Part shown: positions 10,464-43,200 of the stretch, piece by piece
How positions within the stretch are numbered: the first letter of the stretch is position 1
Layout of the letters: every line of letters starts with the position of its first letter
Source: Chrysomallon squamiferum
Lineage: Eukaryota > Animalia > Mollusca
Assembly: GCA_012295275.1 (NCBI GenBank)
Contig: CM022670.1
Span: 31,496,001-31,560,000 of the forward strand
Length of the DNA stretch: 64,000 nucleotides
Reading direction: 5' to 3'
Position numbers and translations under genes: made by a program
Notes under the pieces: model-generated
Told to the model about the DNA's origin: nothing
The model's database searches: none
Seen by the model: the letters and a program-made list of their open reading frames with translations, nothing else

Positions 10464-11396
10464 GATGTACTCAACAATGTAATAATAACTTCAACGGAGA
10501 GAAGCAAGAAGTAAACTGTTCGTGTTTGTCAAATGGCGTCGTATTTAAGTCTCGATAAGCTGGTAATTGTAATCGCGCTACATTGACAACGCCAAAGAAC
10601 CGAAAAATACCTAAAGTAATTACAATCCTTTACATTTTGTTTGAATTAATGTTTGAGAGCATTTGCCTGATTTTAAGCGTTTACATTTGTTATATTATAC
10701 ATCTACATTGTTTTAACAAAAAGAAATACACTAAAATGTTTCACTTTATATATATATTGTTTATCAATTAAGTTAGATACGGTAAATTGGTGAATATTTA
10801 TTATTACTGTAACTTGTAAGCGTAGTCATTACTTATAAAGTAATAATACGGAATAAGAAATAACTTGAAACCAAATGTAAGTAAATTATATACATTTTAT
10901 CTTTAGGTACAGTTAAATTTAAGGATAGATTTAAATTTTAATAACATTTGTTAATTAAACACTAGTATTTCTATAATTTATTTCAAAGACATGATATTAT
11001 TATTATTAATTAATTAATTTATTTATTTTCTTCTTATTATTATTTTGAAAATAAATATATTCCTGTCCGTGTATAAAGTCATATTCATCTTTTGCACTGT
11101 TTTGGTAATCAAGATCGCAGTTTCACGTGTCATAATACAGTGTTGATTTTTAATATTTTTTCATTTAATTAAAAGTTCAACTATTTAGAAAATAAAATAT
11201 TATATGAGGGAAATGATAGAAATTTGTTTTATTATTATTCTTTTGATGAGCAATTAATTGTTATTAATAGCTATGATGTCAGAGACCAAAATACTTTCGA
11301 CTGGTTAACATTCCATTTTTATTCCTGGAGAACTTTTAAAGGTTTCTGGTGTACCGAATTGTAATTACATAAACATTTATTGTTATTGAGACTAAA
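10464..11396. promoter_or_regulatory. Divergent (bidirectional) promoter region VCP/LEPROT
   Basis: ATGs face away from each other about 930 bp apart. CpGs are locally retained, with a YY1-like AAATGGCG at 10531. Confidence 0.6.
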
Positions 11397-11804
11397 ATGG
11401 CCGGCATTCGGGGTGAGTGATTGTCATGTGGTAAATAATAAGTTTATCGTCAATGAATTAAGGTTGAAATGTTTTTTCTCTGCTGTAATTACTGACAGTC
11501 AGAATATAAAATGAATACAAATATCGAAACTCATTTATTATTTGTATTCATTAATTTCATAATAAAATAACTATTTTTGTATTGAACAATACTAAATTAT
11601 TAAATAGTAAATTACTTACTACAAGTATTAATACTATTACGTTTTATTTTTCATTCATTAAGTGCCTTTGTCATTATTGTAGTGGACATATTAATATTCC
11701 GTGTTTTTAATTTGATGTTTAATGTTATTTTATCGCATGAAAACATCATCAGTTTTATATTCCCATATGTACCAATTACTGCAAGGATTTGACAGCTCCT
11801 AAAA

Positions 11805-11843
<39 letters not shown>

Positions 11844-14800
11844 TTAATCTGTTATATATAACGATGCATCACATGTTCCATTCAGTTCACTAGCATTCAT
11901 AAGGTATCGATTTATAACATACAAATCAGGCTTGGAATATAAGACAGTGTTTACTAGAACCAAACAACAAAACAACAACAACAACAACAACATCAAAGTA
12001 AATTTCTGAAGTAAATGTTAATAACTACAAATTAGAAAGGCAATATCTTGGGAAAAGATTATTTCTATTTACTCATTATGACCTGTTTATTTAGTAACTG
12101 TAATAAAAATATCCATATGGTATATGTTAAGGAATGTTTTGCCTTTACATTTATGTGTCTGTTATAAACAACCAAATTATATCATTCACTAGTTGTTTTA
12201 AAAAGTTGTCATTACTAACAGTATTTGTACTTGTATATATATTAATAATAATGATTCTCTGATTAGATCCAAAAAGACAGTTACATCAAATTATAGTTTA
12301 AATGCAGACAAAAATGATTATAACTTGTTTGCCATTGCCATCCAATTTAGCATATATATATATAGTTTACATGCCAAAGTAGATTCATGATGCATAGATC
12401 ACATGCCAAAGTAGCATCCAAAAATGTTTCAAAGAAATGTGCAGAGACAGAAAATATTCATATACATTTTAATCAACTTTAAAATAAAAATGATACATTG
12501 ATAGTTTATAAAACAGCAGTTCAAACCTTGAGGTGTTTCTTTCCAATAAGAATGCTTTTATTAAAAATAAAATATGTCAGTAAATTAAATTTTCAGACTG
12601 AAAGAGAGCAACATTTTTATAAAATTTGAAGTGAGATTTGAAATATTGTAGAATTTGTAAAGGAACATTGTTAAAAAAGATACAAATACTGTAATATTTT
12701 CAGGTCTGTTTTGTACCTTCGATTCTTTCTCCATATTATTAACCCAAACGATTTTACCCTTCCTCCAGGGTGTGATGCAACATCAGTTCTTATGAATTTT
12801 AGTTAACCAAACATAATTTATGTGTACTGTCATTTATTTATTTAATGGAATGATCTACACACATATTGAATTAGATAAACAGTAATTTATGGATGAACGA
12901 TTTGTCATTGTAAGGTAACACTCTTGCGTCCCTCGGCGGAAGAAAGAAAACTACTAAATCTCAGAATAATTTTTAATCAGCTTATTCTTAGAGTCATTAC
13001 TGAAAATCAAAATTCCAATTATAAAGATATGAATTAAATTAAATGTTCGTTTATTTATTTATTTATTTATTTATAAGGTATATTTCATTTAATTACATTA
13101 TATATATATATAATGTATATATGTACCCCAACTTCAACAAAGTCTTGGGGAAATAATATGTGGTTTTGTTTCCAACTCCGTTTTTTAATTATTTAAAAAA
13201 AAATCTTTTCAATAACAATTTTAATTTATCTTAACTGAGTATTTAGTATATGTAGACTATTTAAAGCAGCATGAAAGTAGCTAAAATTTTGTAAATTAGT
13301 TACTTTAATAAAGGAAATTAGAATCATATTATTGCATTATGAAGTTCAATTACATCTCAACATTTGAAAACCTGGTGTATAAATGTCAAAAAAGTTTTAC
13401 AATAAATTTGTTTTGTCCTTATTTTTGTTATATTTAATTTAATTATAATCTGACTTTTCTAACTCGGATCATCATTGTAAATACAAAATGTAGAATTTTC
13501 AAAATACATTTAATTAGGACAAGGCACATTAAATTATTAAATGAATGTTTATTTTCAGTAAGAAAAAGAGACTGATTATTTCACAATGCCCGACAATTCA
13601 CAACCAAAATGATGTTATTGCTAAAACAGTAAAAATATAGTCATTGTACTGAATCTTTAATTAATGTGCACTATGAACATCACAATCAAAAAAAAAAAAA
13701 AAAAAAAGAATATAAAAAAATAAATTAACAAAGAAACCAATAAATTAATAGGAATAATAATATAAAACAGAAATTAAAAAAAAAAAAAAAATCAACCCTC
13801 TTTTTAATTTTTTCGTTTTGTATATATACTCGTAAATAACACAATTGAAATGCAATTACTTGATGTTCACCTTCAGAATCGTTTATTAATAATATGTTAG
13901 AATCAGTTGTTTTCAGTCTGAATTCCAAAGTTTTTAAACTTCTCGTTCTAGCGGCCTTGCGCTCTAATAGGTTTTCCCGATTGGAATGAAATTTCTAGTA
14001 TGAAAAACGAAATTACCATTTTCAAAATAAATTTTTCCAGTAGTTATATGTCGGTAATTGCAATTATATATTCCCAGTATCAAAATACAAATATTTTTAC
14101 TAGTTATGGTTAAAGTTGACAACGTAAAATGTGTTTCATATATTAAAATGGGTGCTGCTTTGGCGTGTGATCTACCCGATCAAGTAATCTATACTGAGAA
14201 AATTCTACGCGCTTATTTTATTTCAATTACTATTTGATTTATTCTTTGGTTGTTGTTATTTTTTGTTTCTTTTTTTATATATATATATAATTTATCGATG
14301 AATTAAGCGTGAAGTTGGCAGGATTTCGCCGTTTTCCCTTTTCTTCGACCTTTCTTCACTTCACCACCACAGTGACATTTCCTTTATCGTCGCCATTTTT
14401 TTAAAGTACCTAACACGCCAATGTAGTTTCACGACGCGTAATTTACATGCCAAAGTAGATTCATGACGCGTAGATCACACACCAAAGTAGCACCCGAAAA
14501 TGTTTCACAGAAACGCGTGAAGACGAAAAATATTCATATGCATTTAAATTTTTATTTTAATCCATTTTATATTTTTAATGTACTTTAAAATAAAAATGAT
14601 AGTGATAGTTTATAAAACAGCAGTTCAAACCTTGAGGTGTTTCTTTCCGATACGAATGCGATTATTAAAAATAAAATGTCAGTAAATTAAATTTTCAGAC
14701 TGAAAGAGAGCAAAATTTTTATAAAATTTGAAGCGAGATTTGAAATATTGTAGAATTCGTAAAGGAACATTGTTAAAAAAGATACAAATACTGTAATATT

Positions 14801-17306
14801 TTCAGGTCTGTTTTGTACCTTCGATTCTTTCTCCATATTATTAACCCAAACGATTTTACCCTTCCTCCAGGGTGCGATGCAACATCAGTTCTTACGAATT
14901 TTAGTTAACCAAACATAATTTATATGTACTGTCATTTATTTATTTAATGGAATGATCTACACGCATATTGAATTAGATAAACAATAATTTATGGATGAAC
15001 GATTTGTCGTTGTAAGGTAACACTCTTGCGTCCCTCGGCGGAAGAAAGAAAACTACTAAATATCAGAATAATTTTTAATCAGCTTATTCTTAGAGTCATT
15101 ACTGAAAATCAAAATTCCATTTATAAAGATATGAATTAAATTAAATGTTCGTTTATTTATTTATTTATAAGGTATATTTCATTTTTTATTGAATGTAGAG
15201 AATCAGTTTTAATTATGACATGTTCCTTTATTTCCTCACTGCCGTCATAAATATATAGATCCTGAGTAACCTGGCAGTTACTGTTTTTCGTTCGTCTACA
15301 AGATTTGGGGCATAATTAGATCTTAGTTACATTACTGTTTACGCATTTTATAAAATTAATCTTCTTTGTATTTACAGTAAATAGAATTTATTTATTTTTT
15401 TATTATTATCTTTTAAAATTATTATTATTAATTTGTTTTGATTTGAATAGATAATTTTTTTCATTTCTTTATTATTTTGTCGTCCAATCAGAATGTTTGA
15501 TCTGTAGGCTTGTAGTTAGACGGTGCGCTATATACGGTTTCTCATGAATTTGTTTTCTTTTTGTTTTAATTGAAATATAATTTCTCATATGGATCCAGTT
15601 TATGGTTGGTAATAATTTCTGTGGTTTTATCAAATTATATTTCTTAAGGTAGAGAAAACAAAAAAGATCAGAAATTTTCCTAACCAAACTGCACTTGACA
15701 ATTATTGAAATCATTTATGCGTATGCTAGTCCTAATTTTTACTGGTGTCTCAAATATAATTCAATTATTTTTAAATTTAATACAAACGAATAAAATAGTG
15801 ATAATTATTTTCAGTTATTAGTCTTTATATATGTTTTTTTTTTTTCTTTCCATATCCTGTTCTCGATTTCAACATGGATATAAAATAATAGCGTAAGTAT
15901 TTGATTTTTTTTTTTAACCTGCATTTAAAAATGAAATCAAATATAAAAAAGTTGTTCATTATTGTTTATATAATAATAATTATTATTATTTGCATGTATT
16001 ATAATGCTACTTAATTATTAAAAGAGATTTGTTTCTTTAAAATGGATATAAATTATTACTTTTGAATTCAGTGTAAATACATACTCTGAAGACTGTAAAA
16101 TAAATTATTGAACTAATGTTTATTTTTTCCATTAGTTTGGTTGGGTTGGCTTTCTCAGCTGCAATAGGTGTTACTTTTTTGGTTCTGGGATGTGCTCTTC
16201 CAGACTACAAGTAAGTTCAATTTATTTTTCTTGATAATTTTTGGTGATACATTTTATTGAATAAATATGCTTTTTATATTTTTTATTTTTATAATTATTT
16301 TGTTTTAAATATGCTATTTTTGTTAAAAAAAAGAAAGAAATACAAAACGAATTATTTTTAAAAATTGCTACACATTTATTCTTATTTGAAAATTCAATTT
16401 AATATCTGCAAATGTTTACTCTGAAGTCTGATTAGACCTAACTATCTAATTTTTCTTCCAGCAACTGGTGGCCTATGTTTGTATTATTTTTTTATGTACT
16501 GTCGCCTGTCCCCACAACAATTGCAAAAAGACTGGCAAGCAGTTATGAGTCTTCCAGTGCCTTAATTGAATTGTGCACCTTTCTCACAACTGGCATTGTT
16601 GTCTCAGCTATTGGGCTTCCTTTGGTTCTGGCACATGTTAATGTGGTTAGTTTTCTTATTTATAATTAAAACAGTTCTGTTTTAGGTTTAAATTATTTTT
16701 AAATATTTGAAAAAAAAAACCTTTATAAAAATGAAAAGCTTTTCATTATCTTAGACTGCAATGTTATATTTATTATTAAATTATTATTTGTTAAAAAGGT
16801 ATTGAAAATAAAAATATTATTTTAGAACCGATTTATAAAAGAAAAAATATTAAAAAGATAAAAGAAAAAAACACTTCAAAAATGATGATTTAAAAAAAAA
16901 AATGAAATGAATTAAATGAATTAAAATGTACGTGATAGTTTAGAACCAATGTAGTCTTAGGTAAAGAATGCTGTTTTCAAGATAATTAATGCTGAAATCA
17001 AAGTATAGAAAAACAAATTTAAAGGCATACCCACACATTTTTCACTAATATTTAAACAACTGGACTATTCTTTGACATCATCTATAGCTGTATGACTCAA
17101 AGCCATTTGTTATTTCTTTGAGATTAAGCCACTCTGGTTTTGCAACTTAACATGTTATTTTTTCATCCTAAATAACAATATTATACTTTCAGATTCAATG
17201 GGGAGCCTGTGCTCTTGTGCTTGCAGGAAATGTTGTTGTATTTCTTACAATATTGGGATACTTCTATGTATTCACCAATGATGATTTTGACTATGGTATG
17301 TGGTGA
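11397..17306 (+). CDS. LEPROT: Leptin receptor gene-related protein / endospanin / VPS55 family, 129 aa, 5 coding exons including a 1-nt exon
   Basis: Exons 11397-11412 (16 nt), 15892 (1 nt), 16136-16210 (75), 16462-16645 (184), 17193-17306 (114) total 390 nt. Protein [48 protein letters not shown]...[19 protein letters not shown]...[23 protein letters not shown]...DYGMW*, a typical 4-TM Vps55 pattern. LEPROT and LEPROTL1 cannot be distinguished. Confidence 0.95.
12366..13090 (+). repeat. Copy A of a ~730 bp direct duplication in LEPROT intron 1 (CpG-decayed)
   Basis: Near-identical to 14442-15184 and flanked by short (TA)n tracts. Confidence 0.9.
14150..14495. mobile_element. ~346 bp MITE-like element with 26-bp TIRs and 32-bp subterminal repeats
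   Basis: GGGTGCTGCTTTGGCGTGTGATCTAC (14150-14175) is the inverse of GTAGATCACACACCAAAGTAGCACCC (14470-14495) at 24/26. About 2.5 tandem units of ACAYGCCAA.GTAG.TTCAYGACGCGTA lie before the right end. Confidence 0.6.
14442..15184 (+). repeat. Copy B of the ~730 bp direct duplication (CpG-retaining)
   Basis: Near-identical to 12366-13090. Begins inside the right end of the MITE-like element. Confidence 0.9.
15892..15892 (+). CDS. LEPROT: Single-nucleotide microexon (C) of LEPROT/VPS55
   Basis: Context ...AATAATAG|C|GTAAGTAT with a long pyrimidine tract at about 15833-15870. Required to restore frame: G + C + T = GCT (Ala). Confidence 0.82.
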
Positions 17307-37629: not shown

Positions 37630-38290
37630 TAATTTGCGAGCCAAAATCCGAGTAACATTCTATCGTCAGATATGCTGCCTCTAGTTGGCGCAACGAACAA
37701 CACAACCTCCGCCCAGCATCCCGTGTTTTACTCGTTTGCTCCATCTGATTACTTCACCGTGGAAGCATCTCTGTTATGTTGTGCTCGCGTTTTGTGCATT
37801 ATTTTGCCAAATTTCTTTTTTCTGGCCATGGATTGTAAGAAAGTGAGTGCAAAGAACAGTGCTGAGGACATGATGTCCATTGAATTAAAGCTTGAATTCA
37901 TAGAAAAACATGAGCGTGGTGTGCATGTAGTTCACTTGGCTAGGCAGTACGAGCATAGTACTTCTGCGATATGTACCATACTGAAGCAGAAGGAGTCGAT
38001 AAAGGCTGTAACTCCAGCCAAAGGCATTAAAATAATTTGTCTGATCTCCAAGAATAATACACTTTAAAAAACCAATTTATTTCTTTACATTCTCTTTTAT
38101 TTTGTGTTTATACAACATTTGTGATTTATGAATACATTTTTCTTATTTAAAAACACGTACAATTTTTTTTTTTTTTTAAATGGGGTGGTTTTGGAGGACT
38201 GGAACGGATTAACAGTATTTCAGTTAATTTCATTTGGGAAAATATGAGCAATTTGAGTTACTAATTAAACTTGTAAGTCGAGGTACCATG
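37630..38290 (+). mobile_element. Tigger/pogo transposon relic with truncated CENP-B-type HTH transposase N-terminus
   Basis: ORF 37672-38067 contains MMSIELKLEFIEKHERGVHVVHLARQYEHSTSAICTILKQKESIK (HTH_psq/CENP-B N-like) and no DDE domain. Tigger-like right end CTTGTAAGTCGAGGTACCA at about 38270-38288. Confidence 0.8.
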
Positions 38291-39310: not shown

Positions 39311-40205
39311 GTAGTGTGGTTTCAAGATTTTTATGTCTCTCGTGGTGGGACATAATTTGTTACTTTTAAAAGTACATGCATTAATAGCTCGCAGTTGTAT
39401 TTATTGCTTCACTGATAGCATTTTACGACGAAATAAGTAATCTGAAGGTTGTTTATAAGTGGCGACGTGCATAGGCCTATCCCTGCTGGCGTTTCAGCCT
39501 GGAATTGGTGGTCCTAGTTTCATTATGCAAACATAGAAACTAGACATATTAATAATTTATTACCCCGAGATACGAAAATGTACTTATTCGTTTTTATTTA
39601 AAGTATTGTTACATTATAATGTTATTTGAAAGTCATCATAATCGTCAGATTTTAAGATAGGATCAACACCTTTTTTTTTAAAGTGGGTAACAATGTTTTA
39701 TATATATATAATATAATATAATAAATCATTCAAAATCTTAATAATCTTGATTATGTCATTTAATAATTCATAGTTGAAAATATCAGCATGCATAATCAGG
39801 TAAGAAAAACAATTATAACAAAAATTCAGAGATAGTACAACTTTTTATTATTTAACTTTATTAAGTCTATAATTATACTAATATTTTATTTGAATAATTT
39901 GGTGCAAGTCTGATGTGACCAGTGACTTAGTATGGCACATTATATCATATATCCCACATGGTCAGGTATAATTTTTATCAGAAAAGGCATACTTTTGCTA
40001 TTTTCAGAGATTTTAATAGTAAAAAAAATAAGAATCTAAGACAGATGTATGCTTTATAGAAATTGATAAATATATATATATATATATATATTTATTTATT
40101 TTAAGAATATTGAATACATTTTTTTTATTATTTTATTTATTTATTTTTCATAAAGGTCAGTCTGATCATTATTTTTAAGATGTGGATAAACACATTAAGC
40201 AAGTG

Positions 40206-43200
40206 ATGGCAGAAGGAGGGCAGAATGATCCATCCAGACTGCAAGGATTCCAGCTTCATTCTAATGGTCTTGGTAATAGCCAAAGACCTAATGAATCAAT
40301 GCCATTCAACAACTGGACTCAATTTAGTGGTGTGAATCCACCAGTTTCTCCGTCAGGGTTGTATTCATGGGACCAAGTCAATCTTTCACATGGTCTTTTG
40401 TCTGAACCATCCTTTATGAGACAGGTCCCAGTAGTTACAAATGATTATGTCACCAAATCTGAACCTGGACCACAATACTACTCCAAGTATTCCAGTTTTG
40501 TCCAGCAAGATCCACAACCCTTTGAGGATTTGTCTTCACCGATTCAGCAAGGTCATTCTGTGCCATGTCAGCATAATTTCTTGGATAATGCATTGCATAC
40601 AACACTTCCTAGGTCCATCCCACAGCAGTGTTTTTCAGCACCACAAAAGGAAAACTTTTCATCAGTGAACCAACCTCAGTTTTGTGAATCACCCCAACCA
40701 CAAGAATTACTTCTTGATTCATCACGACAGTTCTCTGAAGATTTTGTTTACAATATGGCTCACAGGGAAGGCTATGACATGTATGCTGAAGCTATGAACC
40801 AATTAAATTCTTGTGGCAATCATGGGGTTTACAAACCATTTGGAACCACTGACGTTCTAGGTCAGAGCAGACAGAAAGAATTCATTGAAGAAACTGCTGA
40901 CAGTACAAATACTAAGCCTACATACTCTGATGTAGCAAAAACTTTGAAGTCAAAGCCTATGCAAAAGCCAAAGGAAAAAGAGGAATTGGATGGCTTGAAA
41001 AAGAAAGTTGATAATATTCCTAAAAACTTTAAACCTGCTGTTAAAAAATCACACCCAAGAACATGTACTGGACGTACAAGGAGTTTGTCAAGTGATGGAA
41101 ATATTGGTTCTGTGGTCTTGCCAGATTCTAAGTATGGTCTTGATCAGTTTGAAGAAAATGATAAAAGTGGAGGAAAAGGAGAAAAGTTTGGTATATCTAG
41201 CAGTTCAGAAAATTTATCTTACCAAAGCAGGAAAGGCAGTACCAGCAGTGTCAGCAGTGGTACAATTGGAATTGAAGAAATTCTTTTAACAAAATCACTA
41301 AATAATCTGAACAGTGGAGACAGTGCAGTAAAACAAGCTACTGAAAATTCCAGGAAATCTGAACATTTAGGACTTTCAACAGACAGAAACACAAAAGAAG
41401 AAGTCAGCCCAGCATCACAGAAACCAAAAAATAATAATTCTTTCTTTGATCCTAAAAGAATATTTCAGAAGAGAGATAACAATTACAGGAAATCTGAACA
41501 TGTTGGACTGTCAGTAGACAAACACATTAAAGAAGAAGTTAGTCCAGCATCACAGAAACAAAAATATAATAATCCTTTCTTTGATCCTAAAAGAATATTT
41601 CAGAAGAAAGATGACAAACCGAAAGGTGATCACAAAAATGTTTCACATTCTAGATTGTCAGACACTGTATTAAATAATGGAAAGCCTGCTAACCTGAATA
41701 AGTCTTCGTCTGTGGCCTCAAAAAAGACTGATTATATCAACAATGACCTCAGAGATTCAAGAAAGAAGACTAATCACAGTGTTGCAATGACACGAGATTC
41801 CCAAAGTAAGAAGGCTGGTCCATCAGACTTGATTGAAAATGGTGGAGCTGATTCTGTACAAGATACAAGTGGGAAGAAGAAGAAAGAAACATCTAACACA
41901 CAAGCAGGGCTTGCTGCAAAGAATGTTCCTTTGACAGGACACATAGATTGGAAGTTGATAGGTACTAGTTGTGTTTTATTCCTAGATGATTATTTTCAAT
42001 TTTATTTTATTATTATTTAAAGACTTTCATTCTTGAATATAATTTTAAATTATTGATTTTTAAATTCACAGGTTGCAGACTAATCATCTTGAAATATCAG
42101 GAACATAGTTTTGATGATAGTTTCTGACAAAGGGATTTTAGCATTAACTTGAATAAAGATAGCTTGAAGACATTAATGAAACTATCTTATTCATTGTTTG
42201 AAAAACAAAGCATTCATAATTAAATTTTCCATAAAGTTAAAAAATTAACATTATACAATTAAAATAATGTTAAAAGAAATACATTTGTATATTTCATGCT
42301 AAAACTTATTGATATTGATCTTTAAAAACCCAAAACCCATACAGAAAATAATTATATAGCTAACGTAACATTGTTATATTACAGTACACAAAATATTTTT
42401 TTATAATAAGATAATATTTTACCAAATTATTCTTTCTTTTTTTTTCTTTAGTTTTTTTTGGTTAATATAAAATAAAAATAAAAATGAATGTACACTTCCT
42501 AATTTATCATTGCTACAGCTGAGATAACAAGATGTAAAAGAAATGAAAATAGAAATGTTTTATAAATTTCATTTTTCTTTAGATGATTGGTTGTCAGCTG
42601 TTGTTGAAAAAATTAAGGGTCCATTTTGCAATTTTTTGTCATTTGGACTGACACTGCTTATCTATCTTGTTGGAATTCTTATGTTTCTGTAAGTACTGGT
42701 ATGGAAACAAAAAGTTTAATCATAATTCCTTTCTTATTTTTGCTTTGGTTTATTTCTTCTTCACATTTGTAAACTAAAAAATAATTTCTTAAAAAATTTC
42801 AAGCATGCATTTTCATAATCAATTCACCCATAAACACTAATATTAAAAATATTTAACATACAGTGGTGAGTGATTTTTTTTTTTCTTAAATTATTCTTAC
42901 TTGTCCAAACTTGATTAATTAAACTAATGCATTATATATGTTTCAGTTTAGTTCGATAAGATCCATTTTTGAGCAGAACAGATCAATTAAGTAACAATAT
43001 ACCTTTATGTTTTAATTCAGTTTGATAATAAAAATTTATGGCAGACATCTCAGTAAGATAATATAGGGTGCTTAAGGTTAATTTTACTAATCAATATTAA
43101 TATTATGACCAATTAATCCAAGAGATACGATTTTCAGACCAGAAATATTGAAATTCATGGGCATTGTTAGTGAAAATGGTCATAATCAATAAGTAAAATT

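Follow-up and report, generated by a model that had tools for sequence, protein, structure and literature searches.

How does a gene encode a conserved protein when its first coding exon and the next recognizable one are a single base out of frame with each other? The question is raised by a VPS55/LEPROT gene on the plus strand of a 64-kb stretch of DNA from Chrysomallon squamiferum, analyzed here as a whole and referred to as the window. The preliminary description of this DNA had assigned the gene to the LEPROT/VPS55 family, and this membership was borne out by the Pfam profile PF04133, whose positions 1-22, 24-88, and 90-120 are matched by the coding exons; the 61-aa and 37-aa exon pieces score above the cut-off and the 24-aa piece slightly under it. 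The nearest named protein is that of the vent snail Gigantopelta aegis, with 89% identity across exon 4. The features of the gene are the following, all on the plus strand.

11397-11412, plus strand: exon 1, coding part (16 nt), encoding M-A-G-I-R and the first base of Ala6, with the donor GTGAGT
11413-15891, plus strand: upstream intron (4479 nt, GT..AG, phase 1), its 5' end placed by RNA and its 3' end from the putative site at 15892
11417-11422, plus strand: tandem +4 donor GTGATT, giving an in-frame Gly-Asp instead of Ala, unused in the single mRNA seen
15822-15889, plus strand: AG-free zone (68 nt), with a weak candidate branch-point A at 15827
15832-15851, plus strand: distant tract with pyrimidines at 19 of its 20 positions, lying 60-41 nt before the C
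15892, plus strand: probable one-base exon C, second base of the Ala6 codon, flanked by the acceptor TAG (15889-15891) and the donor GTAAGT (15893-15898)
15893-16135, plus strand: downstream intron (243 nt, GT..AG, phase 2), its 3' end placed by RNA
16136-16210, plus strand: exon 3 (75 nt), region of the first hydrophobic helix, Vps55 positions 1-22, covered by an RNA contig with 0 differences
16462-16645, plus strand: exon 4 (184 nt), Vps55 positions 24-88, with the RNA joint 16210 to 16462 (GT..AG)
17193-17306, plus strand: last exon, coding part and stop codon, Vps55 positions 90-120, reached by loose RNA ends (runs X2 and X4)

Other coding pieces of the window lie further downstream. They comprise an acetyl-CoA synthetase N-terminus (PF16177; 35854-36219, minus strand), a TRM13 methyltransferase (PF05206; 52386-52727, minus strand), and two open stretches with no Pfam match on the plus strand, of 613 codons (40179-42020) and 144 codons (37633-38067).

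Exon 3 begins at 16136, one base ahead of the L-V-G-L-A-F frame, just as had been described, and exon 1 joined straight to it runs out of frame and stops at codon 16. The earlier proposal was that a single C, lying within the gap as an exon of its own, restores both Ala6 and a length of about 130 aa, and the prediction held: with the C included, exons of 16, 1, 75, 184, and 114 nt yield an open protein of 129 aa. The gap between exon 1 and 16136 spans 4723 nt and contains eight AG-N-GT sites, two of them with C as the central base. The letters TAG-C-GTAAGT at 15889-15898 were confirmed, and this is the sole AG-N-GTRAG in the gap; the 9-mer AG-C-GTAAGT has a single copy in the window. Among 1000 gaps simulated with a Markov model, AG-C-GTAAGT arose in 7, AG-C-GTRAG in 23, and AG-N-GTRAG in 137. 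Both introns that would flank the C are of spliceable size and both are GT..AG. Within the long intron we also observed a duplication of about 730 nt (12363-13090 and 14439-15184, 90% identity), which contributes four of the eight AG-N-GT decoys.

The preliminary description had called the one-base exon required. For the DNA taken by itself this was too strong, because the +4 donor and the acceptors at 16159, 16168, and 16204 also leave the frame open. Without any microexon, seven direct joins are open, including those with the +4 donor (after 11416) and with these three acceptors; 136 frame-restoring AG..GT internal exons of up to 300 nt are possible, and the frame would be mended, too, if the assembly had slipped by one base in the donor's G run or the acceptor's T run. 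The part of the claim that stood concerns the transcript, where exactly one C is found.

Four sequencing runs (X1, X2, X4, and X5) were aligned to the window over 15700-16700, as contigs. The deciding contig comes from the RNA run X2 (2593 nt, depth 16.1): it matches 16136-16210 with 0 differences and 16462-16645 with 1, the two being joined GT..AG, and the 20 loose letters ahead of 16136 equal window positions 11394-11412 followed by one C. Past 16645, the loose ends of the X2 and X4 contigs continue into 17193. By its length, the X2 contig extends about 2.2 kb past the stop codon, indicating a long 3' UTR (17307 onward). The search for inclusion and skipping products that had been suggested earlier thus returned a contig reading exon 1, C, 16136, and no skipped form in it. 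The junction is covered in one of the four runs, by one contig, and contigs lose rare forms; X1, X4, and X5 have no cover at the junction of exon 1 and exon 3, and their short matches at 15800-15950 and 16250-16330 are low complexity. Accordingly, a C is present in mature mRNA that adjoins neither flanking exon in the genome, as read from one contig against genomic junctions known from the window.

The letters of this RNA dispose of most of the options that the DNA had left. For the X2 transcript, skipping and longer exons were rejected by the sequence exon 1, single C, 16136, and the Gly-Asp form of the +4 donor by the RNA letters themselves. The acceptors 16159, 16168, and 16204 were rejected by RNA cover that already starts at 16136, and assembly slips in the G run or the T run by the identity of the added base, a C. 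Among the 136 frame-restoring internal exons, only the one-base ones with C agree with the RNA. Because no read or contig in the alignment over 15700-16700 links 15892 to either neighbor, we infer, and do not observe, that the C comes from this position. Taken together, it is highly probable that the C of the mRNA is a genuine spliceosomal exon of one base, lying at 15892 and supplying the middle base of Ala6.

The preliminary description had also pointed to the VPS55 orthologs of other invertebrates as a place where the site might recur. A scan of metagenome contigs yielded 41 loci, 24 of them genomic; 13 of these hold an exon matching 16136-16210, and the other 11, which do not hold it, were left out. 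In 12 of the 13 the matching exon begins in phase 2, as it does in the window, and in 8 of these 12 the motif AG-C-GTAAGT lies 109-644 nt upstream of exon 3, where 0.0006-0.003 per locus would be expected by chance; two others carry AG-G-GCAAGT, and two have no site in the available DNA. Across the 193,552 nt of the 24 genomic loci, both strands counted, the 9-mer was found nine times, and eight of these are at this site. The loci with a site are as follows.

L028, L031, L032, L034, and L035: AG-C-GTAAGT, best named matches Capitella or Lingula (65-71%), with L028 and L032 near-identical (74/75 nt)
L039: AG-C-GTAAGT, best named match Mya (91%)
L040 and L041: AG-C-GTAAGT, best named match Tachypleus (61% and 50%)
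L036 and L037: AG-G-GCAAGT, readable in two ways, as a single-G exon followed by a GC donor or as 7 nt of exon ending at a weaker GT donor

In L039 and L040, exon 1, the C, and exon 3 lie on one contig, and the protein start is normal with the C; without it, a stop is reached within 8 codons of the start. The first nine coding bases of exon 1 are repeated in L040 (765-780 and 975-1000), and the alternative N-terminus that results recalls the extended-first-exon form of plants. In L036 (80-215) and L037 (1-64), introns of 54 and 55 nt surround a single G; by our reading these two loci, which have no close named match, are nematode-like, judged by the 55-nt introns. An unnamed protein model (P0210) omits the first helix at the same point as the L036/L037 exon. 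Two near-identical contigs, L025 (1518 nt) and L027 (406 nt), have a phase-2 acceptor and no AG-N-GTRA in the available DNA; their exon may be a G or may lie beyond the contig end. A transcript similar to them (L004) has Gly at this residue, with G as the middle base. On the other hand, a copepod-like locus (L021; Tigriopus, 74%) has a single phase-1 intron of 213 nt and no one-base site. Human LEPROT presumably has the phase-1 intron only. No relative was found among viral_contigs (0 of 49 candidates) or genome_contigs (0 of 34), and no solved structure was matched. The two adjacent introns likely predate the split of molluscs, annelids, and arthropods, with vertebrates and the copepod-like lineage having the first intron only.

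These loci bear on two readings in which 15892 plays no part. In the first, the assembly would have lost a C beside exon 1 or at the 16136 acceptor, the gene would have one intron here, and the site at 15892 would be there by chance. No DNA contig lies over either junction (run X5, which may be DNA, leaves 16006-16209 uncovered, and the genomic bases at the acceptor are known from the window alone), and the 137 simulated gaps with an AG-N-GTRAG set the rate at which such a site arises by chance. Nevertheless, the missing base is a C and does not extend a G or T run, the same frame gap occurs in 12 of 13 other genomic loci and the same 9-mer in 8 of them, and four protein models (two octopus, Capitella, and Bradybaena) have the right start and then mend the frame at this very codon, so that an assembly error is scarcely conceivable. 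In the second reading, the source of the C would be position 14308, where AG-C-GT also occurs, or else RNA editing or a non-standard splice. The RNA letters fit the C of 14308 as well as that of 15892; however, the donor at 14308 is the weaker GTGAAG and the acceptor AAG, whereas in the eight other loci the donor is GTAAGT and the distance to exon 3 (109-644 nt) is comparable to the 243 nt at 15892. We know of no C insertion in animal nuclear mRNA. An origin of the C outside 15892 is thus highly improbable.

The four models just mentioned belong to a wider set of database proteins, compared as representatives of 90% clusters, with the members inside the clusters left out of the count. An exon of this size had been called invisible to gene predictors, and the comparison agreed: the start M-A-G-I/V-R/K-A-L is present in 0 of 28 named lophotrochozoan models, in 54 of 74 named vertebrate ones, and in 5 of 9 unnamed short-contig proteins. 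Nearly all of the wrong lophotrochozoan models diverge at the Ala6/Leu7 boundary. In twelve of the 28, x-Ala precedes the Leu, frequently with Phe-rich text ahead of it, a pattern expected if the acceptor is read through into the C, and eight have Arg or Ser at that point, which read-through of the phase-2 acceptor would produce; the four named above have the correct start with the frame patched at the Ala6 codon (Capitella falls into two groups of this tally). Because mis-started vertebrate models likewise end in x-Ala, the x-Ala group proves nothing when taken alone. At 15831-15892 of the window, an in-frame ATG within the pyrimidine tract is followed by no stop through the C into exon 3, and gene predictors would likely use it; the Phe-rich starts of the scallop and Mya models point that way. 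The public lophotrochozoan VPS55/LEPROT models therefore look wrong at the N-terminus, and can be fixed.

The sequence around the C departs from that of an ordinary acceptor. An AG-free zone of about 65 nt and a long pyrimidine tract before the AG had been described; the zone was confirmed, at 68 nt, but the tract is not where it was placed, as the 20 bases that precede the AG include only 7 pyrimidines and the best 20-mer (19/20) ends 40 nt upstream. The AG-free zone of the one-base exon has a median of 78 nt (59-170, n = 9 including the window) compared with 31 nt (20-114, n = 18) for the next two acceptors, a difference with a nominal p-value of 2e-4 among loci that are not independent. The donor is GTAAGT in all nine sequences. 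A distant pyrimidine tract is clear in the window only, the best 20-mers of the other eight loci having 13-16 pyrimidines, and in three annelid-like loci a branch-like motif lies just 7 nt upstream of the one-base exon. TGC occurs within the last 20 nt in 2 of 8 sequences and is absent there in the window.

One base would be too small for factors to occupy both splice sites simultaneously, and the signals may for this reason be spread out. U1 would bind the consensus donor, and the branch point and pyrimidine tract would lie 40-70 nt upstream, behind the AG-free stretch, so that the distant branch point and tract together with the strong donor would form the unit that defines the one-base exon. 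The short downstream intron of 243 nt would then be removed first, leaving a 76-nt exon that starts with the C, and the upstream intron of 4479 nt would follow, cut at the first AG past the branch point. We regard this order by exon definition as moderately probable. It is preferred to recursive splicing because the long AG-free zone and the distant tract resemble those of the 4-nt exon of human MPC1, for which 67 nt of the upstream intron and a 6-nt donor suffice and the branch points map to -68 and -64 (PMC9929638). In that study, the MPC1 exon still works when cut to 1 nt, a mutant of its AG still removes the downstream intron, and its authors favor exon definition. For a plant microexon, 41 intermediates with only the downstream intron removed and 0 with only the upstream one are reported (PMC8831610), and a downstream-first order is given for 58% of SRRM4-dependent microexons in another study (PMC10250204). 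Human minigenes show inclusion that tracks donor strength strongly and AG-free length weakly.

The opposite order was the one favored in the preliminary description, which had called the splicing recursive-like. The exon would be just as real, the long upstream intron would leave first, and exon 1 plus C, followed by GTAAGT, would then serve as a donor. The upstream intron is indeed the first to be transcribed, and its removal would place exon 1 and the C directly ahead of a consensus donor. However, the site is not a strict recursive splice site (AG-GT, with an exon of zero length), given that one C stays in the mRNA; the acceptor has no nearby pyrimidine tract (7/20), and the MPC1 exon, argued as exon definition, still loses its downstream intron when the AG is mutated (PMC9929638). 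The 12 of 28 x-Ala models would fit an intermediate in which the upstream intron is kept and the C is joined to exon 3, which is suggestive only, since the pattern would look no different with an ordinary phase-1 acceptor. No recursive-like intermediate was present in the RNA contigs aligned to 15700-16700. We consider this order unlikely, and exon definition, as in MPC1 and related cases, the likelier route.

That the exon is constitutive, in turn, rests on one RNA contig and on the frame argument. The exon could instead be regulated: skipping might lead to NMD, use of the +4 donor to a protein with Gly-Asp, or a different first exon, ending at the C, to another N-terminus like that of early land plants. 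Skipping would bring the stop at codon 16, with two junctions still to follow, and the +4 donor is in frame. A stop very close to the start codon may escape NMD. The repeat in L040 provides a second in-frame start 25 nt before the C, and an in-frame Met is found upstream of the C in 7 of 9 sequences; such Met codons would be expected anyway in an AG-free, T-rich stretch. Two forms of VPS55 are reported in hornwort, liverwort, and Selaginella (PMC8831610). Against regulation, the inclusion form alone is seen in the one junction-spanning contig, and the +4 direct join is not among the open joins of L039, L040, and L036. Regulation thus seems unlikely.

Comparable exons are few. In the literature searched, subscription journals excepted, no animal nuclear gene was found with a natural exon of one base; a 2026 review offered nothing relevant, nor did MEPDB on VPS55. 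The one-base exon of placozoan mitochondrial cox1 is reportedly flanked by self-splicing, not spliceosomal, introns. That exon shares with ours an animal host and the length of one base, and differs in being mitochondrial (PMC5436844). Human annotation contains no 1-bp exon according to the MPC1 paper (PMC9929638). Plant one-base exons in VPS55 and APC11, which the preliminary description had mentioned, are in print, for plant VPS55 (PMC8831610), Zygnema VPS55 (PMC11096116), and Arabidopsis APC11 (PMC4674806), together with one in Fusarium CYP621A (PMC12940212).

The closest of these is plant VPS55 (cluster 2 of PMC8831610). It belongs to the same gene family, is one base long, lies in the N-terminal region before or at the first helix, has a strong GTRAGT donor, and escapes annotation, which leaves the N-termini wrong; it falls inside the first 13 residues, and its absence costs one helix. 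It differs in that the host here is an animal and the upstream intron is 4.5 kb long, and early land plants have a second form produced by retention of the upstream intron. In our own comparisons, the best 150 of 982 cluster representatives included no recognizable plant sequence; a region search for plant VPS55 gave two proteins, neither from a plant, and Atlas gave chordate-dominated clusters.

The remaining systems differ in other ways. The APC11 exon of Arabidopsis (PMC4674806) is a constitutive single base, likewise needed for the frame, with a branch-point candidate unusually far away (44 nt), whereas it belongs to another gene, in a plant, between short introns, and has been proven by minigenes. 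The Fusarium CYP621A exon (PMC12940212) is the middle base of a conserved codon between phase-1 and phase-2 introns, and is also backed by conservation and RNA reads; unlike ours, it is fungal, confined to a single genus, and surrounded by introns that together total about 139 nt. Human MPC1 (PMC9929638) has an exon 2 near the start codon that is constitutive and frame-shifting, with a long upstream intron, a distant pyrimidine tract, a signal about 67 nt upstream, and a consensus donor, but it is naturally 4 nt long and reaches 1 nt in engineered minigenes only. By analogy, we infer that the VPS55 one-base exon would work as the MPC1 microexon does. The neural microexons of the SRRM4/eMIC program (PMC8797185, PMC10250204, bioRxiv 2024.09.17.613571) resemble it in a long AG-exclusion zone and a weak 3' context, whereas they are tissue-regulated, usually frame-preserving, and have UGC near the AG; the exon described here is frame-shifting, has a length of 1, and carries no UGC mark in the window, which places it outside that class.

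In all probability, then, what is new is an animal example of the one-base exons described in plants and fungi; it shares its gene, VPS55, with one of the plant cases and is conserved in several protostome lineages. With it, the smallest size of a natural exon in an animal nuclear gene would be one base, here in a housekeeping gene and beside a long intron, and the exon offers a natural test case of splicing at two sites that leave the spliceosome no space between them. The presence of the site in mollusc-, annelid-, and arthropod-like genes, together with the plant VPS55 exon, also makes it possible to ask whether the adjacent introns are ancestral and why they were not lost. We see an even chance that two introns one base apart in VPS55 were inherited from an early eukaryote ancestor of plants and animals, and that the exon has been kept since by setting VPS55 output or its N-terminus. 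If true, this would contradict the view that the VPS55 microexon first appeared in the lineage leading to land plants. The exon would also be the first of its size, natural and spliceosomal, to be demonstrated in animals, and would rank with the oldest microexons known, the same single base having been retained for more than 1 billion years, and in animals even with introns of kilobase size around it.
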